NCBI GenBank assembly: GCA_021205365.1
Contig: JAJPXP010000049.1
Span: 11,495 to 75,494 of the forward strand
Direction of reading: 5' to 3'
DNA from: Clostridia bacterium
GTDB taxonomy: Bacteria; Bacillota; Clostridia; Oscillospirales; Butyricicoccaceae
DNA: 64,000 nt
Shown here: in pieces, positions 11,250 to 25,838 of the stretch
How the letters are laid out: each line of letters opens with the position of its first letter
How positions within the stretch are numbered: the stretch's first letter is position 1
Translations under genes and position numbers: made by a program
Notes under the pieces: model-generated
The model's input: the letters and a program-made list of their open reading frames with translations, nothing else
Told to the model about the DNA's origin: nothing
Database searches by the model: none

Positions 11250-13196
11250 TTACTTTTTCGCCTTAGTCTCTACAACCTCGGTCAGCAGTGCTTCAAAGTC
11301 CGCATAGGACATTGCCCCCAGATCACCCTCTGCACGATGGCGCGGGGATACTGTGTTGTTTTCGAGATCCTTGTCGCCTACAATCAGCAGGTACGGAACA
11401 CGCTCATTGCGGCCCTCACGGATCTTATAACCGAGCTTCTCGGAGCGATGGTCCACTTCCACGCGGAAGCCCTTTGCGGTCAGCTTTGCTGCAATGTCAT
11501 CTGCATAGTCAGCAGCACGGTCTGTAACCGGCAGAACACGTACCTGCTCTGGCGCCATCCAGGTCGGCAGGGAGCCTGCATACTTCTCGATCAGGTATGC
11601 CAGTGTACGTTCGTAGCAGCCCAGAGAAGTTCTGTGGATGATATACGGCAGAGCCTTCTGGCCGTTTTCATCAATATAATACATGCCAAACTTCTCTGCC
11701 AGCAGCATATCTACCTGCAGGGTAACGATGGTATCTTCCTTGCCGTGTACATTTTTATACTGAATATCCAGCTTCGGGCCATAGAAAGCGGCTTCATCCA
11801 CGCCCACTTCATAATCAATGCCCAGATGATCCAGGATTTTACCCATAACAGCCTGTGCTTCTTCCCACTGCTCTGCGGTACCCTCATACTTGTTTTTCGG
11901 GTTCGCCGGGTCCCACTGGGAGAAACGGAAGGTGCAGTCTTCCCACATGCCTACCGTATCCAGGCAATACTTTGCCAGTTCAAAGCAGTCACGGAATTCC
12001 TTCTCCAGCTGGTCCGGGCGCAGTACCAGATGTCCTTCGGAAATGGTAAACTGGCGGACACGGATCAGTCCGTGCATTTCGCCGGAGTCCTCCTTGCGGA
12101 ACAGCGTAGAGGTTTCACCCAGACGCATCGGCAGGTCGCGGTAAGAACGCTGGCGGTTCAGGAATACCTGGTACTGGAACGGGCAGGTCATCGGACGCAG
12201 TGCAAAGCAGTCCTCTTCCTCATTGTGCGGATCACCGATGATAAACATGCCATCTAAATAATGATCCCAGTGGCCGGAAATGCGGTACAGATCACGCTTT
12301 GCAACCAGCGGGGTCTTGGTCAGCAGATAGCCGCGCTTCTGCTCCTCATCTTCAATCCAGCGCTGCAGCAGCTGGATTACACGTGCACCCTTCGGCAGCA
12401 GGATCGGCAGACCCTGTCCCACGGTATCCACTGTCGTAAAGTATTCCAGCTCACGTCCGATTTTATTGTGGTCACGCTTCTTTGCTTCCTCGACAGCAGC
12501 CAGATATTCATCCAGCATGGACTTTTTCGGAAATGCGGTGCCATAAATGCGCTGCAGCATTTTGTTGTGCTCATCGCCGCGCCAGTAAGCACCCGTGCAG
12601 GAAGTCAGCTTGAATGCCTTTACCTTGGAGGTATCGGTGCAGTGCGGACCTGCACACAGGTCGGTAAAGTCACCCTGATGGTACAGTGTAATCAGCGCAT
12701 CTTCCGGCAGGTCTTCGATCAGCTCAACCTTATAGGTTTCGCCCTTTTCACGGAACATAGCGAGTGCATCCTCGCGCGCAACCTCTTCACGGATCATCGG
12801 GATGCCCTGTTTTACAATCTTCTTCATCTCGGCTTCGATCTTTTCCAGATCCTCCGGTGTGAAGTTGTGCTCAGAATCAATATCATAATAGAAGCCGTTG
12901 TCAATTGCCGGGCCGATTGCCAGCTTGACATCCGGATACAGATGCTTCACAGCCTGTGCCAGTACATGGGAAGCAGTATGGCGCAGCGTCCATTTTCCCA
13001 TCTTATCATCAAAGGTGAGAATGCTCAGTGCGCAGTCCTCGGTCAGCGGGGTTTTCAGGTCAACGGTTTCACCGTTTACCTCTGCTGCCAGTGCAGCACG
13101 TGCCAGGCCGCCGGAAATCTGCTTGGCTACATCCAGACAGGAAGAACCTTCTTCCGTCTGCAGGACAGTGCCATCCTTGAGGGTAATGTTGATCAT
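11250..13196 (-). CDS. thrS: Threonine--tRNA ligase
   Basis: TGS-domain start MINITLKDGTVLQ, editing domain, class II core and anticodon domain. ATG 13196 is preceded by AAGGAAAGGAAAG. Confidence 0.92.
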   Translation of the reverse strand: MINITLKDGTVLQTEEGSSCLDVAKQISGGLARAALAAEVNGETVDLKTPLTEDCALSILTFDDKMGKWTLRHTASHVLAQAVKHLYPDVKLAIGPAIDNGFYYDIDSEHNFTPEDLEKIEAEMKKIVKQGIPMIREEVAREDALAMFREKGETYKVELIEDLPEDALITLYHQGDFTDLCAGPHCTDTSKVKAFKLTSCTGAYWRGDEHNKMLQRIYGTAFPKKSMLDEYLAAVEEAKKRDHNKIGRELEYFTTVDTVGQGLPILLPKGARVIQLLQRWIEDEEQKRGYLLTKTPLVAKRDLYRISGHWDHYLDGMFIIGDPHNEEEDCFALRPMTCPFQYQVFLNRQRSYRDLPMRLGETSTLFRKEDSGEMHGLIRVRQFTISEGHLVLRPDQLEKEFRDCFELAKYCLDTVGMWEDCTFRFSQWDPANPKNKYEGTAEQWEEAQAVMGKILDHLGIDYEVGVDEAAFYGPKLDIQYKNVHGKEDTIVTLQVDMLLAEKFGMYYIDENGQKALPYIIHRTSLGCYERTLAYLIEKYAGSLPTWMAPEQVRVLPVTDRAADYADDIAAKLTAKGFRVEVDHRSEKLGYKIREGRNERVPYLLIVGDKDLENNTVSPRHRAEGDLGAMSYADFEALLTEVVETKAKK

Positions 13197-13223
13197 AACA
13201 ATACTTTCCTTTCCTTGGGGCAA

Positions 13224-13594: not shown

Positions 13595-15808
13595 TTACGC
13601 CCCGGAAAGCATGGTTTCACTTTCGGAGACAAGCAGGACAATTTTGTCTTTTTCCGCCTGGATTTCCACCTGCTGTCCCGCCTTTCCGGACAACAGCAGC
13701 CCTGCAAGCGGATCTGTGACCTTTCTTGCCACTTCATCCCGGACGGCACGCGCACCACGGTTGGCGTCTACAATCCCCAGCAGCTTTTCCACCCTTTCAT
13801 CCCAGGTCAGCCGGGTTCCTCTCGCCAGACATCTGTTTGCCAGCTGGGCCAGCTCCTGTGCTGCAATCGCGGCACAGTCTTTGGCTGTCAGAGCAGAAAA
13901 TACAATAATATCATCCAGACGGGCTGCCAGCTCCGGCTGCAGGACCCTTCTCGCTTCTTCCTCTGCATGGGTCTGCGCCGGGTTTTCCTGTGAAGAAAAG
14001 CCAACTCTCCGTCCCTGCCGTCCGCTGCCCAGATTTGAGGTCAGCACAACAACCGCGTGCCGGAAATCAGCGCTCCTTCCTTCAGAATCTGTCAGCCTGC
14101 CGTCTTCGAGAAGGCGCAAAAGCATACGCAAAACATCCGGATGGGCCTTCTCCACCTCATCAAACAAGACCAGGGAACGCGGCCTTCTGCGGATTTTTTC
14201 CGTCAGCTGTCCGCCGTCACCATAGCCTTTATAGCCGGGAGGTGCGCCAATCAGCCGGGAGACATCCTGCGGCTGCTGATATTCGGAAAGATCGATGCGA
14301 ATCAGCCCGTCTTTGCCAAACAACGCCTGCGCCAGCGCAGTACAAATCGATGTTTTGCCAACACCGGTAGAGCCTGTCAGCAGCAAAGCTGCCACCGGGC
14401 GGGCTTCATCCCGCAAGCCGGCTCCGCCTCTGCGAACAGCACGGCAAATAGCCCTGACGGCAACTTCCTGCCCGATGATCGTCCTGCAAAGCTCTTTTTC
14501 CAGCTGCAGCAGCTTGTGTGCCGCATCACCCTTTGCTGCTGCGGAAAATCCGCCGAAACGCTGCGCAATCCGTGCAACCTCCCGTTCCGTGATATCCGTG
14601 CCGCCTTCCAGATGCACCGCAGCACACGTTTCATCCAGCAAATCAATCGCCTTATCCGGCAAATGCCGTTCCGGGCTGATACGCACAGAAATCTCCACTG
14701 CTGCGTGTAGTGCATCCGCATGGATGTGTACGCTGTGATGCTGTTCATACCGCGGCGCAATCCCCTTCAGGATTTCCTCTGCGCCTGCTTCATCCGGTTC
14801 TGATACATCAATACGCTGGAAACGCCGCTCCAGAGCGGCATCCTTTTCAATGGTTTTATGATATTCTGCTGTTGTTGTTGTACCGATTAACCGGATTTCT
14901 CCGCGTGCTAGCGCTGGTTTCAACAGATTGGATGCATCAATCGCGCCCTCCGCAGAGCCTGCACCCACCAGTGTGTGTACCTCATCAATAAAGGCAATGA
15001 TGTTCTTCGAAGCGCTTAGCTCCCGCACGATGTTTTTCAGCCGTTCCTCAAATTCACCGCGGTATTTGGTGCCGGAAATCAGGCTTGCCATATCCAGTGA
15101 AACCAGTCTCGCACCCTGCAGCTCTTCCGGTACTGCGCCGCTTGCTATCGCCAGCGCAAGCGCTTCTGCCACAGAGGTTTTACCGACGCCCGGATCACCC
15201 AGCAGCACCGGATTATTCTTTGTCCTGCGCTGCAAAATGGTCATCAGCCGGAACAATTCGTCCTCACGTCCGATGACGGGGTCCAGCTTGCCGCTCCGCG
15301 CCATCTCTGTCAGATCAGTGGCATACCGGTCCAGTGTAGAGGTGGACGCCATGCGTGCCATGGCACGCCAGCCGGCAGGTTCCTGCGCTACAGAAATCCC
15401 GGTCTGCCGTTCCAGAGCCGGGATATCCGCCTTCATTTTTTCCATGACACGTCGTGCGGTACACTTGCGGCAGCTCACCAGCGCACACAAAAGATGCCCT
15501 TCTCCAGCTGCCCCATTCCCGGCGGCGCCCGCCGCCTGCCGCAAAACCATCTGCAAATTTCTGCTGAGATGCTCCGGTTTATGCCGTGGAAAGCTTCTCC
15601 CTGTTATTTTTGCTGTATAATATAATCCGCGCCAGCTGCTGACACCGGCCTGTGTCAGTATTTTGCCCGCAGTAGAGTTCCGCTTTGCCGCGAGTCCCAG
15701 CAGCAGATGCTCTGTTCCCACGGTATCCTTCCCCAGCAGTCCCGCACGGCGTGCAGACACCTCCAGTACGCGCTTTGCATTCCGGTCAAATGGTTCCTGA
15801 AATTCCAT
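13595..15808 (-). CDS. Clp/Hsp100 AAA+ ATPase with two nucleotide-binding domains (ClpC-like)
   Basis: N-terminal Clp-R repeats (GTEHLLLGLA). Walker A motifs GDPGVGKT and GSTGVGKT, Walker B motifs IAFIDEVH and LVLFDEVEKA. 737 aa. Confidence 0.85.
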   Translation of the reverse strand: MEFQEPFDRNAKRVLEVSARRAGLLGKDTVGTEHLLLGLAAKRNSTAGKILTQAGVSSWRGLYYTAKITGRSFPRHKPEHLSRNLQMVLRQAAGAAGNGAAGEGHLLCALVSCRKCTARRVMEKMKADIPALERQTGISVAQEPAGWRAMARMASTSTLDRYATDLTEMARSGKLDPVIGREDELFRLMTILQRRTKNNPVLLGDPGVGKTSVAEALALAIASGAVPEELQGARLVSLDMASLISGTKYRGEFEERLKNIVRELSASKNIIAFIDEVHTLVGAGSAEGAIDASNLLKPALARGEIRLIGTTTTAEYHKTIEKDAALERRFQRIDVSEPDEAGAEEILKGIAPRYEQHHSVHIHADALHAAVEISVRISPERHLPDKAIDLLDETCAAVHLEGGTDITEREVARIAQRFGGFSAAAKGDAAHKLLQLEKELCRTIIGQEVAVRAICRAVRRGGAGLRDEARPVAALLLTGSTGVGKTSICTALAQALFGKDGLIRIDLSEYQQPQDVSRLIGAPPGYKGYGDGGQLTEKIRRRPRSLVLFDEVEKAHPDVLRMLLRLLEDGRLTDSEGRSADFRHAVVVLTSNLGSGRQGRRVGFSSQENPAQTHAEEEARRVLQPELAARLDDIIVFSALTAKDCAAIAAQELAQLANRCLARGTRLTWDERVEKLLGIVDANRGARAVRDEVARKVTDPLAGLLLSGKAGQQVEIQAEKDKIVLLVSESETMLSGA

Positions 15809-15938
15809 TCCACTCCCTCGCTTTCATTTACTCCTTTCTTCATCTTTACCCAATTCCTTCCTTTTTAGACGTGAATTTCTGATTTCGCTAAGAAAAATTT
15901 ACTTCCTGAAAATGGACACGTTTTTTTCCTTTTTGGAG

Positions 15939-15966
15939 TTGTTTTTTTTCATTATTGTGATATAAT
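15939..15966 (+). promoter_or_regulatory. Putative extended -10 promoter of the ferredoxin gene
   Basis: TTGTTT, 16-nt spacer, TGaTATAAT. Confidence 0.45.
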
Positions 15967-15999
15967 GAGGATGAAATTATTACAGGAGGTGCTACTCTT

Positions 16000-16170
16000 A
16001 TGGCTTATACAATTAGCAGTGCTTGCATCAGCTGCGGTTCCTGCGCTGGTGAATGTCCTATGGGCGCTATTTCTGAGGGTGACGGTCAGTACGTTATTGA
16101 CGCTGGTACCTGCATTGATTGCGGTTCCTGCGCTGGTACTTGCCCGATGGGTGCTATTTCTCAGGAGTAA
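16000..16170 (+). CDS. fdx: Clostridial-type 2x[4Fe-4S] ferredoxin (56 aa)
   Basis: Below the ORF-track size cutoff. Sequence MAYTISSACISCGSCAGECPMGAISEGDGQYVIDAGTCIDCGSCAGTCPMGAISQE has two CxxCxxCxxxCP motifs. SD AGGAGGTG lies 8 nt upstream. Confidence 0.92.
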   Translation: MAYTISSACISCGSCAGECPMGAISEGDGQYVIDAGTCIDCGSCAGTCPMGAISQE

Positions 16171-16501: not shown

Positions 16502-17683
16502 ATGGAAAATTATACCTTCCTGCTGGTTCTGGCAATTATCCTTCTTTCCACGAAGGTGCTGGGCCTTGCTTCCGGCAAGGTTAATATGCCACAGGTTGTA
16601 GGCGCACTGCTTGCAGGTCTGATTCTTGGACCATCCGTACTGAATCTCGTTACAGAAGACAGTGTTATTACTGTACTTTCTGAAATCGGCGTTATCATGC
16701 TGATGTTCTCCGCTGGTCTGGAAACCGACTTGCAGGAGCTGAAGAAGACCGGTGTTGCGTCCTTTGTTATCGCAATGGCAGGTGTTATCGTTCCTCTGCT
16801 TGGCGGCGCGGCCCTGTACATGGGGTGGTTCAACGGAGAAGGCGACCCACAGCATCTGCTGAAAGCTATCTTCGTCGGCGTTATCCTGACTGCTACCTCC
16901 GTTAGTATCACAGTTGAGACACTGCGTGAGATGGGCAAACTGCAGGGCAAGGTTGGCGTTGCCATCCTCGGTGCAGCTGTTATTGACGATATCCTCGGTA
17001 TCATTGCGCTGACTATCGTATCCAGCTTTACCGATCCGGATGTACAGATCGTCTCTGTTCTAATTAAGATTGTTCTGTTCTTCGTCTTTATTGCTGTTGT
17101 CGGCTTCATTGTTTACAAGTACTTCCAGCACCTGAACAATGCATTCAATGAAAAGATGCATCGCCGTGTTGCAATCTATGGCCTTGCTTTCTGCTTTGTT
17201 CTTGCATACTGCTCTGAGACTTTCTTCGGTGTAGCTGATATCACCGGTGCATATTTCGCAGGCCTGCTGCTCTGCAATCTGCCGAACGTACGCAATTACG
17301 TTAGCAGAAAAGTTGATATCTGCGCATACATGCTGTTTTCCCCGGTATTCTTCGCAAGCGTTGGTCTGAAGACTGACCTGAGCGGCCTGACTGTTAGCCT
17401 GCTGATCTTTGCTCTGCTGCTGCTGATTATCGCGATCCTGTCCAAGATCGTCGGCTGCGCCCTCGGTGCAAAGCTCTTCAAGTTCACCAATCATGAGGCT
17501 CTTTCCGTCGGTATTGGCATGGTATCCCGTGGTGAAGTTGCACTGATTGTTGCCCAGAAGGGTGCTGCATTCGGACTGGTTCCGGATTCCCTGTTTGGTC
17601 CGGTTATCCTCGTTGTTATCGTAACAACGCTGATTACTCCGGTTCTTCTCAAGCTTGTTATGGGCAGCAAGAAAACTGCATAA
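16502..17683 (+). CDS. Cation:proton antiporter (CPA2/Kef-NapA type)
   Basis: About 12 TM segments. N-terminal signature LGLASGKVNMPQVVGALLAGLILGPSVLN. ATG 16502 follows AGAAGGTG; the track's GTG at 16493 lies inside that SD. Confidence 0.8.
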   Translation: MENYTFLLVLAIILLSTKVLGLASGKVNMPQVVGALLAGLILGPSVLNLVTEDSVITVLSEIGVIMLMFSAGLETDLQELKKTGVASFVIAMAGVIVPLLGGAALYMGWFNGEGDPQHLLKAIFVGVILTATSVSITVETLREMGKLQGKVGVAILGAAVIDDILGIIALTIVSSFTDPDVQIVSVLIKIVLFFVFIAVVGFIVYKYFQHLNNAFNEKMHRRVAIYGLAFCFVLAYCSETFFGVADITGAYFAGLLLCNLPNVRNYVSRKVDICAYMLFSPVFFASVGLKTDLSGLTVSLLIFALLLLIIAILSKIVGCALGAKLFKFTNHEALSVGIGMVSRGEVALIVAQKGAAFGLVPDSLFGPVILVVIVTTLITPVLLKLVMGSKKTA

Positions 17684-17702
17684 CATATCGTTTTATATAT
17701 GT

Positions 17703-17742
17703 AAAATCCCGCAGATTAAACTTCTGCGGGATTTTTATTTTT
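17703..17742. terminator. Terminator shared by the antiporter gene and the last phage-like ORF
   Basis: AAAATCCCGCAG-loop-CTGCGGGATTTT with T-runs. Confidence 0.75.
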
Positions 17743-17744
17743 GC

Positions 17745-18377
17745 CTATAATGTTGCTTTCCAACGTTCCAGTGCAAGCTTCGCATTGTTGTAGGTACTGC
17801 TGGCAGTCCGTGTACCTGCCTTTACACCTAAAATTGCCGCATCTGCCGGAAGCACAACGCCATAGGTTTCCCAGCGTGCCATCGCCTGCTCATATGCTGT
17901 TTTCTGGACAGTATACGTGTACTGCCTGTCTGCATTGTACTGGTCAATCTTGGACTGCGCCTGCTGCAGCTTGATCTCCGCCATCCCATTGTTGTAGGTC
18001 TGTGTTGCCTGCGCCATCTCCGAAGCACTGTTGTTCCGTGCCTCCTGTTCTGCTTTCAGCTTCTGTACCGAAAGGTTGTTTAGATTGGAACGAAGCGCAT
18101 TATCCGCTGCAACGCGTGAGGTTTCTGTATAACCTGTGGTGGGCGAGGTATATATGCTGCCCCCGCTTAGTCCCGCAGCAGCCAGCTTTTCCTCCTGTCC
18201 CAGCGCAGAAATCCGTGCCGCATTCTGAGCCTGTGTCACGCTGGTACGGTAGGATGCCGCTATGTCCTTCAAATTCCACTGCATCCGGTTCAGACTTTCC
18301 TGTTGTGCTGTCTGCAAAGCATTGAGCCTGCTATTCTCGGCAGCACGATATAATTCATCAATATTGAATGTTGCCAA
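17745..18377 (-). CDS. Phage-like structural protein, Q/N/A-rich predicted coiled coil (210 aa); needle/plug-like by size and position
   Basis: TTG start 8 nt after GAGGAGG. Low-complexity helical sequence (QAQNAARISALGQEEKLAAAG..KLKAEQEARNN..IKLQQAQSKIDQYN). Last gene of the module. Confidence 0.45.
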   Translation of the reverse strand: MATFNIDELYRAAENSRLNALQTAQQESLNRMQWNLKDIAASYRTSVTQAQNAARISALGQEEKLAAAGLSGGSIYTSPTTGYTETSRVAADNALRSNLNNLSVQKLKAEQEARNNSASEMAQATQTYNNGMAEIKLQQAQSKIDQYNADRQYTYTVQKTAYEQAMARWETYGVVLPADAAILGVKAGTRTASSTYNNAKLALERWKATL

Positions 18378-18390
18378 CTGTCAAACCTCC

Positions 18391-20178
18391 TCAGATCTGG
18401 CGTACAGCCTTGCGCACGATATACCGTACGGTCAGCCCCAGCAGCCCGAATGGTTCCCCTTTATTTTTATTTTCCACGATCATCTGGAACTGATATGCCC
18501 TTCGAATCCGCCTGCGCACATCAGCCGGATAGGATGCTGCTGTTGAACGGAAAGAAAACCGGGAAAAATCCATATTCGCAAAGGAAAACTGGGAAAACTT
18601 CACTTTTTTCACCCATTCATACAGATGCTCTGTCCGGTACCAGATATCCGCCCCAGAGTAACCATACGGCATCAGCGCCGCCTGACAGGATAAAATGGTT
18701 TTCCCCTTATCCCATGTACCCAGCGCAGACAACGGCGTCACCCAGCGCGCAGCAACCGGCTCTCCATCATCAGAATATGCATCCACATCGTTGGTATGGC
18801 TAAAGGTGCAGACACGTCCATCCGCCGTCCCAAACCATAAATCCCCCGTGGTATCCGCGTCTGCAAGAAAGCAAACCGCCGGAATATGATCCCAGTAATA
18901 CCATTCCGGTATACTGTTTTCCATCTGCCTGCTGTCTGCTACATAGCAATGACCGCCAACTGCCAGATAATATTTTCCATCCCATACGCAGGCGACCGCC
19001 TTTCCCAGCTCTTCCCGGAGCAGCTTTGGATTGATGCGCTGGGATACGCCTGCTATGGTACGGTATTCCGTGACATACGTACCATAAATGCCCATCACGC
19101 CCTGTGGGGACAGATAATATGGCGTGCCATCCAGTACATCAATTGCATAGGCGCTGACCGCGCCTGCCGCCTCGGCGCCCTGCTTCAGCGGGTACGTCGG
19201 ATTGTCATTGTCATCCAGCTGGAAGGTACGCAGATACTGTTTCGCATCCTGTCCATCTGATTTCAGCACAATCTGCGTGTCATACTGTCTTGCATATCCC
19301 ATAATTGCCGATGCATCCAAACCAATTTTTGTGTAGCCGGTATCCGGAAAATAGCTTGGATCATATAATCCGGACTGCCAGTCACAGTTTGGAGCATCCG
19401 GATTGCCGGATATAAAAACACGTGTATCATTTTGTCCGCCATACAGGCCATAAATCCTGCATTTGTTGATGTCAATATGTTCGGTTGTCTTGGCGAACCG
19501 AATCTCTACATTTGCCAGTCCTCCGGCATCCGGCGGTGCTTCTGTGAGGGTAACGGTACCAGCTGCCGTATTCACAGAGGCAACCTCATATCCCTCGCAG
19601 GTTACTTCATCCAGATCAATAAATTTGCTGTCCAGCTGGAATACCGTACTTTTTCCATCTCCGACAAAGGTATTGATACGCCATGGTGTCAGCAGATTGA
19701 CCGCTTCTAGGCTGGTTCCGCCTCCTTCGGGCGGGCTGCCGATGGTTGTCGTCGGAATAAATGCGACGTCACGTACGGGTCTTGCCGTTTCCCCATCATA
19801 AACCAGATATGTCTTTCCATCCAGAAGCCACAGTTTTCCTTCCATTAAAAAGGATACAGACTGCGCTTCATTCATGTCCTCATACAGCAAATCCGTGGTT
19901 TCATCCGGATTCAACCGCCAGAGCTGTGTACCTGCATGGCATAGAACATCATCATTGAGCCGGTGTAGCCCATAGATTCGTCCATCAAAGCGTATCTTTT
20001 GCTTGTATCCGGTACGCTTTACCGGAAAATAGGTTTCATTGGCGATCATATTGCAGGCATCCGGTGAACGGGACCAATCCACTTTGGTGGCATGGTTTGC
20101 AAAATCTACACCGGCGAACCGCTCTACTGTCAGCTCCTGTATTGGTTCCGCATCAGGAAACTGATATGCTGTGCTCAT
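18391..20178 (-). CDS. Phage-like structural protein (595 aa), beta-rich; tail hub/nozzle candidate by position
   Basis: ATGA-coupled to the upstream ORF. Repetitive W/Y/G-rich beta-type sequence. No enzymatic motif seen. Confidence 0.45.
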   Translation of the reverse strand: MSTAYQFPDAEPIQELTVERFAGVDFANHATKVDWSRSPDACNMIANETYFPVKRTGYKQKIRFDGRIYGLHRLNDDVLCHAGTQLWRLNPDETTDLLYEDMNEAQSVSFLMEGKLWLLDGKTYLVYDGETARPVRDVAFIPTTTIGSPPEGGGTSLEAVNLLTPWRINTFVGDGKSTVFQLDSKFIDLDEVTCEGYEVASVNTAAGTVTLTEAPPDAGGLANVEIRFAKTTEHIDINKCRIYGLYGGQNDTRVFISGNPDAPNCDWQSGLYDPSYFPDTGYTKIGLDASAIMGYARQYDTQIVLKSDGQDAKQYLRTFQLDDNDNPTYPLKQGAEAAGAVSAYAIDVLDGTPYYLSPQGVMGIYGTYVTEYRTIAGVSQRINPKLLREELGKAVACVWDGKYYLAVGGHCYVADSRQMENSIPEWYYWDHIPAVCFLADADTTGDLWFGTADGRVCTFSHTNDVDAYSDDGEPVAARWVTPLSALGTWDKGKTILSCQAALMPYGYSGADIWYRTEHLYEWVKKVKFSQFSFANMDFSRFSFRSTAASYPADVRRRIRRAYQFQMIVENKNKGEPFGLLGLTVRYIVRKAVRQI

Positions 20179-20558
20179 TCATCCATCCCCCGAATCGTGG
20201 TTTCCGTGCATGGCGCATAATATGCCGCATGTTGTTGATATTCACTCATCAGCCAGTTGAACATAACGCGGTCATCTTCTGCAATCAATAATGCTGCAAG
20301 TCCATAGGGAAAGCATTCCTGTACAAACCGTTCCTCATAAGGAATTTCATCCTCCAGACTGTCCAGTGCTGCTACAGGGGAATCCCCGGCCAGGGCGGTA
20401 TCATATCCCTGTGCCCGCAGCAGTGCATTCTGCTCATAATTGCGGTCACACAACATTTGATTGATACAGCCCGGTGCCATATCTTCCAGATAGGTAACAT
20501 TCTCCGCCTCCAGCCCGAGCAGCACCAGCGCCTGTTCATACAGCTGTCTTCCGGTCAT
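20175..20558 (-). CDS. Phage-like small structural protein (127 aa); head-completion/adaptor candidate by position
   Basis: ATG 20558 is preceded by AAAGGAAGGTG. Lies directly after the capsid gene. Confidence 0.45.
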   Translation of the reverse strand: MTGRQLYEQALVLLGLEAENVTYLEDMAPGCINQMLCDRNYEQNALLRAQGYDTALAGDSPVAALDSLEDEIPYEERFVQECFPYGLAALLIAEDDRVMFNWLMSEYQQHAAYYAPCTETTIRGMDE

Positions 20559-20600
20559 AGGCACCTTCCTTTCTGTTTCAAAAAAATCCATATATTCAGT

Positions 20601-20623
20601 GGCGGGCGCGTCATGCGCCCGCC
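20601..20623 (-). promoter_or_regulatory. GC-rich 9-bp hairpin just downstream of the capsid gene
   Basis: GGCGGGCGC-atgac-GCGCCCGCC lies 15 nt after the MCP stop. No immediate U-tract, so it may be an attenuator or mRNA stabiliser. Confidence 0.5.
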
Positions 20624-20637
20624 ATTTTTGTGCCTTT

Positions 20638-21690
20638 TTAGCAGGAAGCTTCTGCCAGATCCGAAGTAAACCGGTTCGATGCAAAAGCAGCTGTACGAAT
20701 GGTCGTTCCGGCCGTCAGCGTGACTGCCGCAGCATAGACCTTTGCACTGTCGGAATAACGCGGGTCCGTGCCGTCCACTGTATAACGCACTTCCTCCGCT
20801 CCAGCCGGCGTAGTAACCGTTGCTTTCAGGCTGGAAATGCTGATGGTCGGTGCTGCCAGCTTGTTGCCTGCCAGAACCAGCGCATAAACACCCGTGCACT
20901 TTGCTCCGAGAACAAACGCATCATAATAATGTCTGCCTTCAATCAGTGCGCCGGACACACCAACCGGGTCATTATGTACCTTGGCATCGGAAATCTTATA
21001 CGGCATCAGTACGGAATTTTTATGTGTGATGATGAAGAAGCAGCCGTCCGGCATATAACTCTTTGGCACACGGACAATATTCAGGCCGGAAATTTCGCCG
21101 CAGACGCCCTTACCAATTGCCTTGACGCCTAAGCCCTCCAGCCCGGTAAACTCCGGTGACAGGCGGATCATCTTATATACTTCACTGGTGACATAAACAT
21201 AGCGGTCACTTTCCGGCACCAGATTGTCATCCAGAGCCTGGGCCCCGGTGGAAATCAGCTCGACAATCGTATCCTTGGTCGGCGCTTCCTCCGCAGTGGC
21301 AATGGTGCCTGCCATCATGGCAAAGCGTTTCAGTGCATATTTATCCGCCGCAGGCGTAGACTGCTCATTGATCTGCAAACGGAGCATGTCCGCTGCACGC
21401 TTGCTCATGTTCTGATCCAGATAGTTGCCCTTGTCAATGGTCAGGGTAAATGCCTTATCCTGGGTCATTTTGAGCTCCTGCACGATATCCTGCATTTCTG
21501 TCACAGCGCCATATCGTGCCATGCCCTCGCGGGTGTAATCCACTTCCGGCACCGTTACAGGTGTATATACCTTCAGAGTTTTTACACCAGTGAGATCAAA
21601 GGTTGTCGATGTCTTTCCCTTTACAAAGGAACCCGCCGTGAATACTTCCGCAATCTGGCTGGAATATTTTGTCGCTAGATTGACTGCCAT
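20638..21690 (-). CDS. Phage major capsid protein with a C-terminal Ig-like/Fn3-associated decoration domain
   Basis: 350 aa, SD AAGGAGG. Sits after an acidic scaffold gene. N-terminus MAVNLATKYSSQIAEVFTAGS is typical of P22-coat-like capsid families (recognised from memory only). C-terminus EVRYTVDGTDPRYSDSAKVY..AGTTIRTAAF resembles the chitobiase/Fn3-associated module. Confidence 0.7.
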   Translation of the reverse strand: MAVNLATKYSSQIAEVFTAGSFVKGKTSTTFDLTGVKTLKVYTPVTVPEVDYTREGMARYGAVTEMQDIVQELKMTQDKAFTLTIDKGNYLDQNMSKRAADMLRLQINEQSTPAADKYALKRFAMMAGTIATAEEAPTKDTIVELISTGAQALDDNLVPESDRYVYVTSEVYKMIRLSPEFTGLEGLGVKAIGKGVCGEISGLNIVRVPKSYMPDGCFFIITHKNSVLMPYKISDAKVHNDPVGVSGALIEGRHYYDAFVLGAKCTGVYALVLAGNKLAAPTISISSLKATVTTPAGAEEVRYTVDGTDPRYSDSAKVYAAAVTLTAGTTIRTAAFASNRFTSDLAEASC

Positions 21691-21704
21691 AATAAATTAC
21701 CTCC

Positions 21705-22178
21705 TTAGCCCTTTCCCATCAGTGCAAGAATGATGGGGTCTGTGATGTTGTTTTCGCCGTCAGAACGTGCGGAGCCCACATCCATTTTGCGATTTTCCGC
21801 ATTCTTTTTCAGCTCCTCCAGCTCCGTGCGCAGCTTCTGGATTTCATACGCACGGTATGCGCCCAGCAGATCCCCGGAACGGTTTGCCGCATCCCATACC
21901 TCTGACGGGATTTCATCGGGCTTGATTTCGGGATATGCATCCAGAAAAGCGCGATAGACATTGCCATCCGGCATGTTTTCCGTCTCCTGGCTGCGGCGTG
22001 CCGCGGTATTTACCTGAGATAATCCCTGTTCAGCTGCAGCAATCAGCTGTTCAATTGTCAGCTCGATTGTCTGCCCATCCACATTCACCGGATAGGTCTG
22101 TTCATCGCTGTCCATCAATGGCATATCCTCGGGATTCTGTGCACCGGCCTCCGGCGCTGCATTGTTTTTTGTCTGCAT
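21705..22178 (-). CDS. Phage scaffolding protein (acidic, helical, 157 aa)
   Basis: Sits between portal and capsid. Acidic N-terminus and helical C-terminus (YEIQKLRTELEELKKNAENRK). SD GAAAGGAGG. Confidence 0.6.
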   Translation of the reverse strand: MQTKNNAAPEAGAQNPEDMPLMDSDEQTYPVNVDGQTIELTIEQLIAAAEQGLSQVNTAARRSQETENMPDGNVYRAFLDAYPEIKPDEIPSEVWDAANRSGDLLGAYRAYEIQKLRTELEELKKNAENRKMDVGSARSDGENNITDPIILALMGKG

Positions 22179-22199
22179 AAAGCAGCCTCCTTTCTATTC

Positions 22200-23771
22200 C
22201 TATTGCTGTATTTGTCCCACACCTGCGGTACTATCCTTCAATGGCTGAATGTCCGTCAGCTGCCCATTTTCCCTCTGCTCTTTCAACGCACGAAGCAGGC
22301 GGGATTTGCCGCGGATCTGGTTGTCCGGAATATTTTCCACATACAGAATCGGGTCTGTGATGATGCCCCGCGCCAGCAGATTGTCGTTTGTGACAGTCTG
22401 CATGGTCTCTGCCCAGTAAGCGCTGGAGCCAACTTCCACATTCAGTTCCAGCGTTGCCGTATCCAGAGAATCAAAATCAAACCGCTCTGCAATTTCCTCA
22501 CCATTGTCATCGGTAATACATACGGTTCTGGATCCGTAATGTACGCGCATTAAATCCACAAAAATGCGCACAGTATCCTCTACAAAGCGGAAAAATTCCA
22601 TCTTTACCAGCTCCAGCGGTGCAATTGTTGCCTGCTGGACTGTGACAATCGCGGAGGTGTTGTCCGGTTTGACATTGCCAAGGGTTGCATCGGATGCACC
22701 CATGAGCTCCATGGTATCCTGAATCATCTGCTCCAGCAGCGGCATCACCTGAGCGGAAATATCCGGTGCCTGAAAAGCTGTGACAATCGCTTCATTTGGA
22801 TTGCCCCGCATGCCGATCGCTTTCCCCACATCAGAGGAATAGCCGGATGGGAAACGGGTCATATCATAGATGATTTTCGGAAACGCCACATGCTTGATGC
22901 ACTGTACATACATAGAGTACAGCTTATTGATGGCAATTTGGTTTGGAATGGCTTCTGAAACCGGAGATTCCCCATGGAAGCAATTTTTCACCCGCATCCA
23001 GCTCATATAAGCTACCGGATACAGGCGGTACGGTGTGACAGTTTCCGGCATAATTACGGTATTCTGCGTGCATTTAAAGAAAGAAATACCATCCTCCGTG
23101 CGCTCCATGCGCAGCAGAACCGTTACCATATTGTCGGTATCATCCACCTGCGCATCATATTGCGGTTCCAGAAGGCTGTCCGGCTTGATATTTTCCGCTT
23201 CACTGCGGCTCAGCCCTCTTGCCATCGCTTCTTTTCTGACACTGTCTACCGAACGGCGCATGGAGATGATGATATACGGCTGGCGCTGTACCTCATCCAC
23301 AGCTGGATTGCCAAAGAAAATATCGGTATTTTCAATGACATCCACTTCAATATCTCCGGCAATGCTCTGCCCGCTGTCCCTGTCCGGATCAAACCGGACA
23401 TAAAAGCATCCATCGCCATCCACACAGGCATTGCGCAGCATATACCGGTTTTTGCTTTTCACGCCGGCGCGTTCAATGACCGATGCTACCGAACGGTCAA
23501 TGATTTTCTGCATCATTTCCCCATCAGGAATAGACTGAAACGGCTGTGCCGTCACAGCAATATCATCCGAAACCAGCATGGAAATGAACATGTTGACAAC
23601 ACGGCGCAGTACATTGAAAATCAACGGGTCCAACGTGGTGACATTCAATCCTTCCCACTGCCGTCCGATGAAGAAATTCTCATTGGTTTTCACCCGGTCA
23701 TACAGGTCAATCCGGTTGTTAAAATCCACACCGCGCTGATATTCCTTCCAGACTGCTTCAGCTGTCTGCAT
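22200..23771 (-). CDS. Phage portal protein (523 aa)
   Basis: Size and position after terminase. ATG 23771 is preceded by GGAAAGGAGGAAAA. N-terminus YQRGVDFNNRIDLYDRVKTNENFFIGRQWEG looks portal-like. Confidence 0.65.
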   Translation of the reverse strand: MQTAEAVWKEYQRGVDFNNRIDLYDRVKTNENFFIGRQWEGLNVTTLDPLIFNVLRRVVNMFISMLVSDDIAVTAQPFQSIPDGEMMQKIIDRSVASVIERAGVKSKNRYMLRNACVDGDGCFYVRFDPDRDSGQSIAGDIEVDVIENTDIFFGNPAVDEVQRQPYIIISMRRSVDSVRKEAMARGLSRSEAENIKPDSLLEPQYDAQVDDTDNMVTVLLRMERTEDGISFFKCTQNTVIMPETVTPYRLYPVAYMSWMRVKNCFHGESPVSEAIPNQIAINKLYSMYVQCIKHVAFPKIIYDMTRFPSGYSSDVGKAIGMRGNPNEAIVTAFQAPDISAQVMPLLEQMIQDTMELMGASDATLGNVKPDNTSAIVTVQQATIAPLELVKMEFFRFVEDTVRIFVDLMRVHYGSRTVCITDDNGEEIAERFDFDSLDTATLELNVEVGSSAYWAETMQTVTNDNLLARGIITDPILYVENIPDNQIRGKSRLLRALKEQRENGQLTDIQPLKDSTAGVGQIQQ

Positions 23772-23964
23772 GGTTTTCCTCCTTTCCCGGTCCGGTATAC
23801 GCCAGCAATGCCGCAATATCCCTGCTCAGTGCATCCTCTGCATCCGGCAGGCCGGCATCGTTCTGTTTTTTCCTTCGGCGCGGCAAATGTGGGCCACCTC
23901 TTGCCGCCCACACGCCACAGGCAAAGCATAGCAGGCTGCACAGACAGCAAATCACATATTCCAT
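23758..23964 (-). CDS. Small Cys-rich single-TM protein (68 aa) between terminase and portal
   Basis: ATAAGGAGGAAAG lies upstream of the ATG. Sequence MEYVICCLCSLLCFACGVWAA, then a basic patch RRRKKQ. Overlaps the portal start by 14 nt. Confidence 0.5.
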   Translation of the reverse strand: MEYVICCLCSLLCFACGVWAARGGPHLPRRRKKQNDAGLPDAEDALSRDIAALLAYTGPGKEENHADS

Positions 23965-23975
23965 CGCTTTCCTCC

Positions 23976-25283
23976 TTATCTTTGATAGGACAGAAAGGCG
24001 TCCATATCGCCATCATACTGTCCCGGCTTCCATGCCTGTCCCGATGGCTGGATGGTTGCGGCAAAATACCGCAGGGCATCCGGCGCATGGGTCAGCTCAT
24101 GGGGATTGTTTGCTGTATCATTGGGATTTTTGTCATCCGCGGCCAGCATTGGCAGGGTGCGGATCAGATTTCTACACACCGGGCTGATTTTCAGCTTTGC
24201 GGTTAAAATCCCCTGTTCATCTGTAAAGGGACGCAGGTATTCCTTCACAGCATACCAGCCAGTGATGCGTTCCCCCATGGCTTTGTCAAAAAACAATCCT
24301 GCTTCTGCAAAGATATCCACAGCAGAACGTCCGGTTTCCTGCCTCCGGTTGAACAAATCCGGCGGGGCAAGCCGCTGGAAAATCACCTCATCACCGGTTT
24401 CGGCCCGGCAGATCACCTCCGCGGCTTCCGAAATAATCAAACCGGATTGATAGACTTCCCGGTATACCCATGCCGTGCCATCCGGTGACAGCGCAATCCA
24501 TAATGCAGCCAGCATATCCAAACCATAATCAATGGCAAGATACCGTTTCCACCAGCTTGGAAATTCCGGTGGTGCGCAGACATGCAGTTCCGGTGAGAAT
24601 TCACAAAAATACTGCCCTTCAAACAAATCCCACTGCCCATACAGCAAAGCTTTCCGGCTGCGTTCATCCAGCATTTCCAGACGTTTGACATAATCCGGAT
24701 CTTTCTGCATCAGAAACGTATTATCCTGCACCTTCGCCGGAAGAAACAGCTTTCCATCTGCTTCCTCACCGGGCATCAGCGGGTCAATGTATCTTGCCTT
24801 ACCCCAGCTATGTCCGACACCGCCAGGGTTTGTCGAGGATTTAACCTGTTTGGGATATGTATTCGTACCACGGATACGGGACAGCATATACGTAAACTGA
24901 AATTTTGTAAAATGCGTCAGTTCATCAAACCGGATGACATCATATTCCGCACTCTGGTATTTGGTCACATCATTTTCACTGTCGCAGTAGCCGAACTCGA
25001 TGATTGATTTGTTCCGGAATGTCCATAAATGGCTGGTTTCCCCATAGCTTCCCACTTCCTGCGGATACAGCGTCAGAGAAACCTGAATCAGGGAACGTTT
25101 CAATTCCGGAAAGGTTCTTCGCAGAATCAGCTGGCGGGATGCCGGATAGGTCAAAGCATAAATCAATGCATCAATCAACTGTGCATAGCTTTTCCCGCCG
25201 CCCGCCGCACCGCCGAACAGCGTTTCCATTGCAGTAGAACGGATAAAATCCAGCTGTCTGCGGGTAACGGAAATTTCCATCAT
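23976..25283 (-). CDS. terL: Phage terminase large subunit
   Basis: Walker A FGGAAGGGKSY, Walker B-like YDVIRFDELTHF, and a C-terminal RNaseH-like nuclease half (LAIDYGLDMLAALW). ATGA-coupled to the upstream ORF. Confidence 0.8.
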   Translation of the reverse strand: MMEISVTRRQLDFIRSTAMETLFGGAAGGGKSYAQLIDALIYALTYPASRQLILRRTFPELKRSLIQVSLTLYPQEVGSYGETSHLWTFRNKSIIEFGYCDSENDVTKYQSAEYDVIRFDELTHFTKFQFTYMLSRIRGTNTYPKQVKSSTNPGGVGHSWGKARYIDPLMPGEEADGKLFLPAKVQDNTFLMQKDPDYVKRLEMLDERSRKALLYGQWDLFEGQYFCEFSPELHVCAPPEFPSWWKRYLAIDYGLDMLAALWIALSPDGTAWVYREVYQSGLIISEAAEVICRAETGDEVIFQRLAPPDLFNRRQETGRSAVDIFAEAGLFFDKAMGERITGWYAVKEYLRPFTDEQGILTAKLKISPVCRNLIRTLPMLAADDKNPNDTANNPHELTHAPDALRYFAATIQPSGQAWKPGQYDGDMDAFLSYQR

Positions 25284-25543
25284 TCAACCACCCGCAGGAT
25301 CAGTTCAAAGGTATTGTCTGTTTTTTGCTCTGCATCCGGTACACAAAGCTGTCCTTTTCCCACTGCACGTTCCAGAATTTCCTTTGCAACACCCGCACGC
25401 GCAGTTCCGCTGAGGGAATCATCCTCCAGCATATCGCACAGGCATTGTGCCGCTTCCGGTGAATGGTCACACAAAATATCCCGTACCAGATCGTTGTGTG
25501 TCTTTTTCCGTCTGCGGCTGTTTTTTGTTTGCGCCAAAGGCAT
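25280..25543 (-). CDS. Terminase small-subunit-like protein (about 86 aa)
   Basis: Basic N-terminus KNSRRRKK plus the motif ARAGVAKEILERAVGKG, as in small terminases. GGGAGG abuts ATG 25543, so TTG at 25537 (7-nt spacing) may be the true start. Confidence 0.5.
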   Translation of the reverse strand: MPLAQTKNSRRRKKTHNDLVRDILCDHSPEAAQCLCDMLEDDSLSGTARAGVAKEILERAVGKGQLCVPDAEQKTDNTFELILRVVE

Positions 25544-25764
25544 ACCTCCCTTACATATGGTATTTTTGCAGCTCACGTGAATTATAATAATTTCCAGTTT
25601 TTTATTGTCTACCACAATTAATTGACAATCTGTGGATAACCTGCAAAACCGCCCGCTTCGAAGCAGGGTTCCCGTTTCGACGATACTTGCCAGAGAGTCC
25701 GCAGGATGCGGTGTTGCTCTGTTCAGCTTTGCGTAGCGCAACTGAAAAAAGCCGAAAAAAACAC

Positions 25765-25815
25765 TTGACATCTGCATTGTATTATTGTATGATTGTATCA
25801 ATCAATTAATACAAT
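25765..25815 (+). promoter_or_regulatory. Promoter plus GntR-type operator array
   Basis: TTGACA (25765-70), 17-nt spacer, TATGAT (25788-93). Three ATTGTAT direct repeats start 8 bp apart (25776, 25784, 25792), and an inverted ATACAAT sits at 25809. Confidence 0.6.
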
Positions 25816-25838
25816 AAGTCAATGAGAGGAGGCCTTCC

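Follow-up and report, generated by a model that had tools for sequence, protein, structure and literature searches.

A nine-gene phage head and nozzle module fixed in the chromosomes of Butyricicoccaceae that most likely builds a GTA-like particle

What is a compact set of phage head genes doing among the housekeeping genes of a gut Clostridia chromosome? The question was raised by a cluster within a stretch of 64 kb from a Clostridia bacterium, referred to here as the window. The nine ORFs named in the original prediction were confirmed at 17745-25543 on the minus strand, all intact and co-directional, with host genes on both sides. Translational coupling, also predicted, was borne out by 4-nt ATGA overlaps between g1 and TerL and between g7 and g8, and by a strong SD, AAGGGAGG, ahead of the g1 ATG at 25543; g3 and the portal gene overlap by 14 nt. 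One flank carries genes for a Na+/H+ exchanger, a ClpA/B-like protein, ThrRS and ProRS, the other a GntR/ABC operon, and the remainder of the window holds housekeeping or metabolic genes only. In line with the claim that other phage functions and direct repeats are missing, no integrase, replication, lysis or fibre genes were found anywhere in the 64 kb, nor a tRNA, nor direct repeats flanking the module. Lysis, fibre and receptor-binding genes were found neither in the window nor within 10 kb of any Butyricicoccaceae locus, and no homologue of the Bittarella-type tail fibre was detectable in this family. A bidirectional intrinsic terminator at 17703-17735, with a 13-bp stem and T-runs on both sides, is common to the module and the convergent exchanger gene.

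A promoter scan placed the module promoter at 25569-25611 on the minus strand, where it is conserved across the Butyricicoccus clade. It comprises a -35 element TAGACA (25606-25611), a 16-nt spacer, a -10 element TATTAT (25584-25589) and a conserved GTGAGCTG (25569-25576). This composite pattern occurred a single time in the window (expected, 0) and, among the fetched loci, at module promoters only. The -35 element is preceded, at a distance of about 20 bp, by TTATCCACA (25631-25639, minus strand), a DnaA-box-like site that matches the consensus perfectly. Of 21 loci in the Butyricicoccus clade, 17 have the motif TTWTNCACA in this same fixed place, with variation at the degenerate W and N positions only. 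The window contains 9 matches to the DnaA-consensus 9-mer where 6.8 would be expected, so that a single 9-mer is weak evidence and only its positional conservation is informative. All 38 loci scored in the Agathobaculum clade have a LexA box, C[GA]AAC-N4-GTTC, that overlaps the -35 element. Neither motif is present in mobile relatives. We regard TTATCCACA as a candidate operator for a host regulator, possibly DnaA; regulation would then be exerted by DnaA in the Butyricicoccus clade and by LexA in the Agathobaculum clade.

The proposed assignments of TerL, the portal and a capsid protein with an Ig-like domain were confirmed by profile searches. TerL (435 aa, 23976-25283; all module genes are on the minus strand) matched PF03237 (1e-12) and phrog_979 (3e-48), contains the Walker A motif GAAGGGKS and has a dN/dS of 0.03. 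The portal (523 aa, 22200-23771; dN/dS 0.03-0.07) is of the P22/SU10 type, with matches to P22_portal PF16510 (2e-12), SU10_portal PF23899 (8e-9) and phrog_156 (8e-23). The capsid protein, MCP (350 aa, 20638-21690; dN/dS 0.03), matched phrog_422 (4e-39), Fn3_assoc (1.5e-8) and CHB_HEX_C_1 (1e-7), reflecting an HK97-type core at residues 1-272 and a C-terminal Ig-like domain at 289-344 (boundaries approximate). Its identity to the MCPs of phages from Streptococcus, Bacillus and Geobacillus is 36-42%, and it gave no N4-gp56 match in NCBIfam.

Among the smaller genes, g1, g5 and, further downstream, g7 are assigned by context, and no homology search confirmed their roles. The first, g1 (87 aa, 25280-25543; dN/dS about 0.12), encodes a putative small terminase, as suggested by its position directly upstream of TerL. 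It has a basic N-terminus, the conserved motif KEILERAVGKG and no DNA-binding domain, and neither searches of Pfam, PHROG, NCBIfam and PDB nor comparison to the TerS of relatives revealed any homology. Between TerL and the portal, g3 (68 aa, 23758-23964; dN/dS 0.09-0.19) encodes a short protein rich in Cys, with a single TM helix at the N-terminus, a run of basic residues and DALSRDIAALLAYTG as a conserved motif; it matched no family, and an equivalent small TM ORF occupies this position in relatives, including real phage-like contigs. The acidic g5 product (157 aa, 21705-22178; dN/dS about 0.13) is a putative scaffolding protein, judged by its composition and its place between portal and MCP; it has no Prp or other family match and is short when compared to the 220-280 aa of its counterparts in mobile relatives.

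A tail is indicated by g8 (595 aa, 18391-20178; dN/dS 0.03-0.09). Its AF2 model (pTM 0.67) was compared to the PDB with Foldseek, and the top 28 matches were all podovirus nozzle or hub proteins, among them those of Pa223, P22 gp10 (8eap_D, 9e-14), Sf6 gp8, T7 gp12 and SU10. The protein also matched phrog_3287, 'virion structural protein' (1e-26), and shares 34% identity with gp15 of Page, a podophage of Bacillus. Judged by its predicted fold, g8 is a podovirus tail nozzle of the P22 gp10/T7 gp12 type, as the original reading of a gp10-like hub had it. The gene before it, g7 (127 aa, 20175-20558; dN/dS about 0.09), carries the conserved motif FPYGLAALL..EDD, and homology searches detected nothing; its position and its overlap with the nozzle gene suggest a putative portal-nozzle adaptor. 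The last protein, g9 (210 aa, 17745-18377; dN/dS about 0.1), had been proposed as a gp26-like needle. This is not supported: its model (AF2, pLDDT 85) is a long helical hairpin (helices 6-67 and 81-172) with no needle match and no significant match in the PDB. Present in all clades with a conserved C-terminal motif, RW.TYG.VLPADA.ILGV.AGT, and weakly similar (best E 9e-4) to coiled-coil modules found in virion lysins and in internal virion proteins, it is probably virion-associated. The roles of g1, g3, g5, g7 and g9 are thus putative.

The module occupies fixed chromosomal sites. Identical sets of nine genes with the same boundaries were found at the same site, in the order GntR-ABC, module, Na/H exchanger-ClpA-ThrRS-ProRS, in about 20 Butyricicoccus-like species representatives, with nozzle identities of 60-87%; the antiporter and GntR neighbourhood is therefore shared, and no relative carries a full-length prophage there. 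A second conserved site was found in about 40 Agathobaculum/Intestinibacillus species: the stand-alone module follows FlavRed-FtsK-BacA-HAD in about 30 Agathobaculum species and adjoins DUF4914 in Intestinibacillus and others. The dN/dS of the module (about 0.03-0.15, with the small genes at about 0.1) is like that of the flanking housekeeping genes (ClpA 0.02-0.09, exchanger 0.04-0.06, ProRS 0.02), and its dS equals that of the flanks (0.37-0.50 versus L093, 0.7-1.1 versus L014). Distances of module and host proteins co-vary (Mantel r = 0.967, p = 1e-4, slope 0.88). All nine genes are under strong purifying selection, and the module is inherited vertically with the chromosome in Butyricicoccaceae. 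Most loci have TerL, portal, MCP and nozzle genes of full length; frameshifts or truncations in a few genomes (TerL of B. porcorum BB10, MCP of I. massiliensis, the portal of L074, and L011/L026) indicate that the module is dispensable. In one lineage, foreign prophage DNA abuts a truncated MCP.

The closest known parallel is FpGTA of Faecalibacterium prausnitzii, encoded by operons I and II (Nat Commun 2026, PMC12946183; preprint 10.1101/2024.11.15.623857), and the original statement that such a system was uncharacterised in Clostridia is outdated by this podovirus-type, GTA-like particle. Besides TerL, portal and MCP, it has a TerS that lacks a DNA-binding domain, a nozzle resembling gp10 and a 'TolA-like' protein that is abundant, and its podovirus-like particles of about 40 nm hold 8.4-8.9 kb of host DNA in a T=3 head (PMC12946183). 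Since that head holds about 8.5 kb, the earlier argument that 7.8 kb cannot fill a capsid is not established. Both systems are chromosomal stand-alone clusters of a gut Clostridia lineage, near-ubiquitous within their taxon and without integrase or replication genes, and both have the order small TerS-like protein, TerL, portal, X, MCP, small proteins, P22-gp10-like nozzle (PDB 8eap) and coiled-coil protein. FpGTA, however, has ten genes in 10.5 kb versus nine in 7.8 kb, an MCP annotated as N4-gp56 family and a preceding Prp-like gene, whereas the module has a phrog_422-type MCP with an Ig-like domain and a g5 without Prp match. Orthology of the head genes is therefore improbable, and by this comparison of annotations the module was probably domesticated independently of FpGTA. 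The host families differ as well, and the Butyricicoccaceae module has no known second operon for fibres or lysis. A literature search for GTAs or particles of Butyricicoccus or Agathobaculum found nothing, and neither genus is mentioned in the text or supplements of the FpGTA paper.

The ancestry of the module points to small short-tailed phages. Its nozzle is homologous (phrog_3287) to those of the Bacillus megaterium podophages of the Pagevirus group (Page, Pookie, Pony and others) and of related small, temperate, podophage-like elements from Clostridia (Bittarella, Guopingia, Christensenella). These relatives also have a P22/SU10-type portal and the same gene order of TerL, small TM ORF, portal, scaffold, MCP, small proteins and nozzle. 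Their genomes of 20-40 kb, however, also code for recombinases, replication and giant ejection proteins, as well as for lysis cassettes and tail fibres or spikes, and their scaffolds are longer, whereas the module is limited to its nine genes. With alphaproteobacterial GTAs it shares vertical inheritance of a phage-derived head and packaging cluster, purifying selection and, as predicted for the module, control by host regulators, a TerS without sequence specificity, and fibre, lysis and regulatory genes that are unlinked. RcGTA is siphovirus-like, with 17 genes in about 15 kb, a head protease and CtrA/GafA control; the module, in contrast, has a short-tailed architecture, no protease and LexA- or DnaA-type boxes directly at the structural promoter. 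An involvement of LexA/SOS in the regulation of GTAs has been described (PMC6473078).

A domesticated module might also serve an end other than gene transfer, with stress-induced capsids that deliver no DNA to recipients and act as an anti-phage decoy or packaging sink, a PBSX-like killing or altruistic-lysis device, or a DNA 'lifeboat'. The lack of linked fibre, receptor-binding and lysis genes and the putative SOS-type control in the sister clade, which resembles bacteriocin and tailocin regulation, would fit such a use, and the FpGTA authors themselves left DNA delivery open. We nevertheless consider it rather unlikely: none of the nine proteins matched a PADLOC defence family, there is no toxin or lytic domain, and terminase, portal and nozzle are equally strongly constrained, which argues for DNA-filled, portal-sealed particles and not for empty shells. 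Far less probable is the capsid-forming satellite offered in the original prediction, a helper-mobilised element with small capsids of its own and borrowed tails and lysis. Like cf-PICIs, the module encodes its own terminase, portal and MCP and a putative scaffold and connector, without tail fibres or lysis genes, its content being limited to packaging, head and neck functions, and related Bittarella modules adjoin primase and recombinase genes. But cf-PICIs are mobile, with integrase, regulators, replication genes and att sites, and use helper tails, whereas the module lacks all of these, and an excisionase, and encodes its own nozzle, so that a helper tail is not needed; its fixed position, host-like dS, co-divergence over roughly genus-level distances and host-type operators are also at odds with a satellite. 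An inert, decaying prophage remnant left intact by chance, to which the frameshifts or truncations and the prophage DNA beside one truncated MCP could point, is effectively refuted by the selection analysis, with nine ORFs kept at dS > 1 and dN/dS 0.03-0.15 in dozens of species, conserved promoter, SD and coupling, and a family-wide distribution at two fixed loci.

In summary, the locus probably consists of structural genes of a small short-tailed phage (Page/P22-type) that were domesticated, became fixed in the chromosome and now build a GTA-like particle, and the original reading to this effect gains support from the fixed site, the lack of a prophage there in relatives, the dN/dS values and the nozzle fold. 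The host-controlled promoter would fire upon replication or DNA-damage stress, sensed through the DnaA-box-like site in the Butyricicoccus clade and the LexA operator in the sister Agathobaculum/Intestinibacillus clade. Capsid protein and short scaffold would then assemble a procapsid on the portal, to be filled by headful packaging through the g1/TerL terminase. Release and adsorption functions (lysis, fibres), if they exist, would have to come from genes at another site, as in FpGTA with its two loci. The adaptor candidate g7, the nozzle and probably the coiled-coil g9 would form a minimal short tail that closes the portal. As there is no excision, replication or recognisable sequence-specific DNA-binding domain in TerS, the packaged substrate would be essentially random host DNA, and Butyricicoccaceae may thus form particles that carry pieces of their own chromosome.

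The module comprises nine intact, co-directional ORFs on the minus strand at 17745-25543, in agreement with the original prediction, and the translational coupling described there was also recovered: ATGA overlaps join g1 (87 aa, TerS-like) to TerL and g7 (127 aa) to g8 (595 aa), and a 14-nt overlap is present at the g3/portal start. The ATG of g1 at 25543 is preceded by a strong Shine-Dalgarno sequence, AAGGGAGG. Profile searches confirmed four of the nine genes. TerL, the second gene, matched PF03237 (1e-12) and phrog_979 (3e-48), and the fourth gene encodes a portal of the P22/SU10 type (PF16510, 2e-12; phrog_156, 8e-23). The sixth encodes the major capsid protein (MCP; phrog_422, 4e-39) with, as expected, a C-terminal Ig-like Fn3_assoc/CHB_HEX_C domain, and the eighth is g8 (phrog_3287 'virion structural protein', 1e-26). 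On one flank the module is bordered by host genes for a Na+/H+ exchanger, a ClpA/B-like protein, ThrRS, ProRS and MscS, on the other by the GntR/ABC operon of the host, and the remaining ~50 kb of the window holds housekeeping and metabolic functions only. A bidirectional terminator was placed at 17703-17735, between the last module gene and the convergent exchanger gene. An Rfam His_leader match (17619-17739) on this shared hairpin scored 31 bits (E 0.08), below the gathering score of 49, and was taken as chance.

[quoted passage not shown] The module is a chromosomal, phage-derived cluster of structural and packaging genes. As predicted, genes for integration, replication and lysogeny control are absent across the 64-kb window, and no att-like direct repeats were found beside the module; the locus has no tRNA either.

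One genome per GTDB species was scanned, which gave 96 relatives, 80 of which were fetched. In about 20 Butyricicoccus-like species the nine-gene module was found at the identical site, between GntR-ABC-permease and Na/H exchanger-ClpA-ThrRS-ProRS, the neighbours proposed for this check. Carriers at a second site, the Agathobaculum/Intestinibacillus clade, total about 40 species: in about 30 Agathobaculum species a stand-alone nine-gene module lies directly 3' of FlavRed-FtsK-BacA-HAD, and in Intestinibacillus and several 'Butyricicoccus sp.' a DUF4914 gene comes next after the module. Within 10 kb of the module, none of these Butyricicoccaceae loci contained an integrase, lysin or holin gene, and neither the window nor the 10-kb flanks of the loci contained a fibre or receptor-binding gene. 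A full prophage at this site, looked for in the relatives, was not observed.

Intactness was scored for TerL, portal, MCP and nozzle, and all four were full-length in the great majority of loci. The exceptions included two frameshifts splitting TerL over three frames in B. porcorum BB10 (L019:4886-6200), an MCP frameshift (two frames) in the type strain of Intestinibacillus massiliensis, Marseille-P3216T (L057:8632-9600), and a portal split over two frames in locus L074, each of which may be either a natural knock-out or an assembly error; module truncations were seen in locus L036. In the L011/L026 lineage, foreign myovirus-type prophage DNA adjoins an MCP truncated at about residue 83, and in L011 the 10 kb upstream lacks the half of the module that runs from TerS to the MCP N-terminus, reflecting either prophage insertion into the module or a deletion. 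The adjoining DNA (L011:1-8760; MAG S4M_St_42, the same as L026) is a prophage end with Baseplate_J, Gp10_C, holin, lysozyme, HTH and a Spo0A_C-like gene. Variation was also observed in the neighbourhood of the module. ThrRS (11250-13223 in the window; L007:16864-18612 and L009:18709-20655 at the same syntenic position) occurs in two forms among close relatives, one of 648-657 aa with a TGS domain (window and L009 85% identical) and one of 582 aa without TGS that is only ~52% identical, while the adjoining ProRS stays at 95-96%, which suggests a xenologous replacement of ThrRS.

Pairwise Nei-Gojobori comparison of the window with twelve relatives showed purifying selection on the module, with dN/dS of 0.03-0.15 overall. 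Values were ~0.03 for both MCP and TerL, 0.03-0.07 for the portal, 0.03-0.09 for the nozzle and ~0.07-0.2 for the five small genes, the same as in the flanking host genes (ClpA, 0.02-0.09; Na/H exchanger, 0.04-0.06; ProRS, 0.02). Module and flank also had equal dS, 0.37-0.50 against the closest relative (L093) and 0.7-1.1 against L014. In 11 syntenic genomes the amino-acid distances of TerL, portal, MCP and nozzle together tracked those of ClpA and the exchanger (Pearson r 0.967, Mantel p 1e-4, slope 0.88). The module is thus inherited vertically with its host under purifying selection. Host-like dN/dS, equal dS and co-varying distances mark a host locus under vertical inheritance and functional constraint, not a decaying remnant or a mobile element, and the comparative evidence for domestication is strong.

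The prediction of a gp10-like hub for the 595-aa protein was tested with an AlphaFold2 model built with 14 homologues (pTM 0.67). The top 28 Foldseek matches in the PDB were exclusively podovirus tail nozzle or hub proteins, among them Pa223, Sf6 gp8, PhiM1, VP1, T7 gp12, SU10 and, as second-best match (E 9e-14), P22 gp10 (8eap_D); on this model g8 is therefore confirmed as a gp10-like podovirus tail nozzle. With gp15 of Page, a podophage of Bacillus megaterium, it shares 34% identity. Its family is very large, comprising 4356 clusters at 50% identity in a representative search, and the ten top clusters looked up contained only Clostridia MAGs, none under a Faecalibacterium name. Across Butyricicoccus, Agathobaculum, Intestinibacillus and Bittarella, nozzle identity grades smoothly from 97% down to 47%.

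The needle of gp26 type expected for the 210-aa last protein, g9, found no support. Its confident AlphaFold2 model (pLDDT 85) is a long helical hairpin with a small C-terminal element and no significant match in the PDB, and its viral matches were weak (best E 9e-4), to coiled-coil modules of virion-associated lysins and internal virion proteins. For g1, g5 and g7 no homologues were found in Pfam, PHROG, NCBIfam, the PDB or among the corresponding proteins of relatives. The 87-aa g1, upstream of TerL, has no HTH or family match, and neither PDB profile search nor hhalign against the TerS of the virome contig L002 and a Bittarella upstream ORF demonstrated homology to any TerS. Likewise, g7 gave nothing significant by PDB profile, PHROG or hhalign against the pre-nozzle proteins of the virome contigs L002 and L003, and g5 (157 aa) had no Prp, Pfam or NCBIfam match. 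The roles of g7 as adaptor, g1 as TerS and g5 as scaffold are putative, assigned by position, size and composition only. The 68-aa g3 is a single-TM protein; every relative, phage-like contigs included, has an equivalent between its TerL and portal genes. The putative scaffold (21705-22178) measures 154-163 aa in all domesticated modules, whereas it measures 220-280 aa in the mobile relatives compared (Bittarella, Page, L002 and L003); speculatively, the shorter form is compatible with a reduced capsid or a changed capsid size.

Larger relatives of the module indicate where it may have come from. In Bittarella massiliensis, the homologous genes form part of a larger element that also encodes a DUF927 primase, a Page-gp16-like tail fibre directly 3' of the nozzle, several fibre-like paralogues around a tyrosine recombinase, and a GH25-LysM lysin and holin preceding the g9 homologue. 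A search for an unlinked fibre gene with the Page-gp16-like fibre returned 18 matches, all Bittarella-like. In strain GD6 the four fibre-like genes (L004:12662-17549, starts at 12662, 13923, 16188 and 17040) share a ~125-nt 5' segment, the copies being 64-70% identical to the first; the recombinase gene (15129-16100) lies among them, and a 246-aa gene is inverted between L004 and L005 (L005:12662-16104). This array resembles a shufflon-type switch between receptor-binding proteins, in which case the 'integrase' may act as an invertase. Immediately 5' of TerL, a ~190-bp repeat occurs in five tandem copies (L004:3795-4552), a possible pac/ori-type region that has no counterpart in the domesticated modules. 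In Christensenella sp. MSJ-20, a Page-like prophage encodes a giant protein of 2187 aa 3' of the g9 homologue, and Page-like podophage prophages with the same nozzle family occur in four Christensenellaceae loci (L085, the MSJ-20 chromosome, and L087, L089 and L091). These are candidate GTA loci, since GTA-like packaging has been reported in Christensenellaceae with the locus not assigned (PMC12946183).

Two human faecal virome contigs from Mexico, MT836592.1 (L002, 9.6 kb) and MT836833.1 (L003, 10.8 kb), have the order TerL-small TM-portal-scaffold-MCP-nozzle, together with a TerS with a basic helical N-terminal region. They were considered as packaged copies of the module and rejected, since each is a phage-like element in its own right, L002 having a collagen-like fibre and L003 a tyrosine integrase. 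Both are small, temperate and podophage-like, and akin to the module's ancestor. Because of these larger free-living relatives and the 4356-cluster nozzle family, the Butyricicoccaceae module is read as a stripped-down derivative of widespread small podophages of Clostridia and Bacilli.

The module shares architecture and logic with FpGTA, the podovirus-type GTA described in 2026 from Faecalibacterium, a genus in another family of the same order. FpGTA operon I (10.5 kb, ten ORFs) encodes a TerS without DNA-binding domain, TerL, portal, a Prp-like protein, an N4-gp56-family MCP, a nozzle and an abundant 'TolA'-annotated protein (FpGTA proteins RCH50844-RCH50853, of which RCH50846-RCH50852 include TerL, portal and nozzle); an unlinked 5.5-kb operon II encodes fibres, RBP, holin and endolysin (PMC12946183). 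The ~40-nm particles, of proposed T=3 geometry, contain 8.4-8.9 kb of host DNA (PMC12946183). The earlier argument that a 7.8-kb locus cannot fill its capsid is therefore unsafe, as an FpGTA-type T=3 head holds ~8.5 kb. Both systems have a nozzle of the P22 gp10 (8eap) type, that of FpGTA (RCH50846.1) having been so annotated (PMC12946183). Where FpGTA has its TerS, 5' of TerL, the module has g1, a putative TerS with no HTH match and no demonstrable homology to any TerS. In contrast to FpGTA, the window MCP has no NCBIfam match at E <= 0.01, and hence none to N4-gp56, but matches phrog_422, and g5, between portal and MCP, has no Prp match. The head genes, compared by annotation only, therefore appear to derive from another phage lineage, which in turn suggests that the module was domesticated independently of FpGTA. 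Set against the P22 module (genes 3-2-1-8-5-4-10-26), the gp10-like nozzle was matched, g9 lacked a needle match and g7 a detectable homologue. The literature searched held no mention of an element of this sort in Butyricicoccus or Agathobaculum.

About 100 bp 5' of g1 are conserved throughout the Butyricicoccus clade, also in loci with a different upstream neighbour. The promoter reads TT[AT]T[N]CACA, ~18 nt, (G)TAGACAA (-35), 16-17 nt, TATTAT (-10), 7 nt, GTGAGCTG, Shine-Dalgarno sequence and ATG; the composite of -35, -10 and GTGAGCTG is found at a single place in the window, against a chance expectation of 0. In 17 of the 21 Butyricicoccus-clade loci the first element agrees with the DnaA-box consensus TTWTNCACA at a fixed distance, varying only at degenerate positions, and in the window it is a perfect consensus, TTATCCACA, at 25631-25639, a candidate operator 5' of the module promoter. 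A single DnaA-like 9-mer is meaningful here only because of this positional conservation. All 38 loci scored in the Agathobaculum/Intestinibacillus clade carry a Gram-positive LexA (Cheo) box, C[GA]AAC-N4-GTTC, with conserved half-sites and variable N4 spacer, some loci having two; in 24 aligned Agathobaculum-type promoters it overlaps the -35 (TTGAC) and is followed by a TATTCT -10. Neither motif was present in the mobile relatives. We infer that host stress regulators captured the module promoter, LexA and the SOS response in the Agathobaculum/Intestinibacillus clade and possibly DnaA and replication status in the Butyricicoccus clade; a LexA input into GTA regulation has a precedent in alphaproteobacteria (PMC6473078). 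A composite-promoter scan of metagenome contigs for a co-regulated second locus gave one unrelated AT-rich 1.2-kb contig. Further upstream, a palindromic, AT-rich stretch that is conserved and directly precedes the divergent GntR gene (TTGTA.TAATTGATTGATACAATAATACAA; 25760-25838) is probably the operator of the GntR/ABC operon itself, and is placed outside the module because it is absent where GntR is not the neighbour.

Taken together, we favour, with some reserve, the view that the module encodes a stress-induced, host-controlled, GTA-like short-tailed particle, with particles, cargo and delivery predicted. The terminase would package host DNA into MCP/portal heads, which the adaptor candidate, the nozzle and probably g9 would seal; lysis and adsorption functions, if any, would have to come from other loci, as they do in FpGTA. 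That the domesticated particle serves a role other than transfer is unlikely, though a reading to keep in mind. Capsid-forming PICIs have an integrase, att sites, a replication module and a helper-responsive regulator, all absent at the module locus. The helper-dependent capsid-forming satellite offered in the original prediction did not hold up, as mobility genes and att sites are lacking and the locus co-diverges with its host, and we regard it as very improbable. An inert remnant is scarcely credible, given that synteny, intactness and dN/dS speak against decay, and a truncated prophage was rejected on the same three observations. A defence system was dismissed, PADLOC matches being absent for the module proteins.

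The GTA-like particle could be taken further. It may be the smallest self-sufficient GTA yet seen (nine genes, 7.8 kb), with g3 and g9 supplying release and cell-wall penetration and production wired to replication status via the DnaA box in Butyricicoccus and to SOS via LexA in Agathobaculum; all of this holding jointly is quite doubtful. If true, one ancestral particle would have been captured twice, independently, each time by a different host stress regulator, and the system would be a tractable one in which to examine a DNA-repair 'lifeboat' role of GTAs in gut commensals that are abundant and produce butyrate.

The first demonstration of podovirus-type GTA-like elements is recent and comes from a single genus, Faecalibacterium. 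Another family of commensal butyrate producers from the gut has fixed a comparable, apparently independently derived module and held it under housekeeping-level constraint over dozens of species. What is added here is this family-wide conservation, a minimal gene set, which amounts to a near-minimal parts list for a DNA-packaging short-tailed particle, and the clade-specific LexA and DnaA-type promoter boxes, which are concrete hypotheses on the timing of particle production. Confirmed particles would make capsid-mediated mobilisation of chromosomal DNA look like a recurrent, selected trait of gut Clostridia and not a peculiarity of Faecalibacterium.
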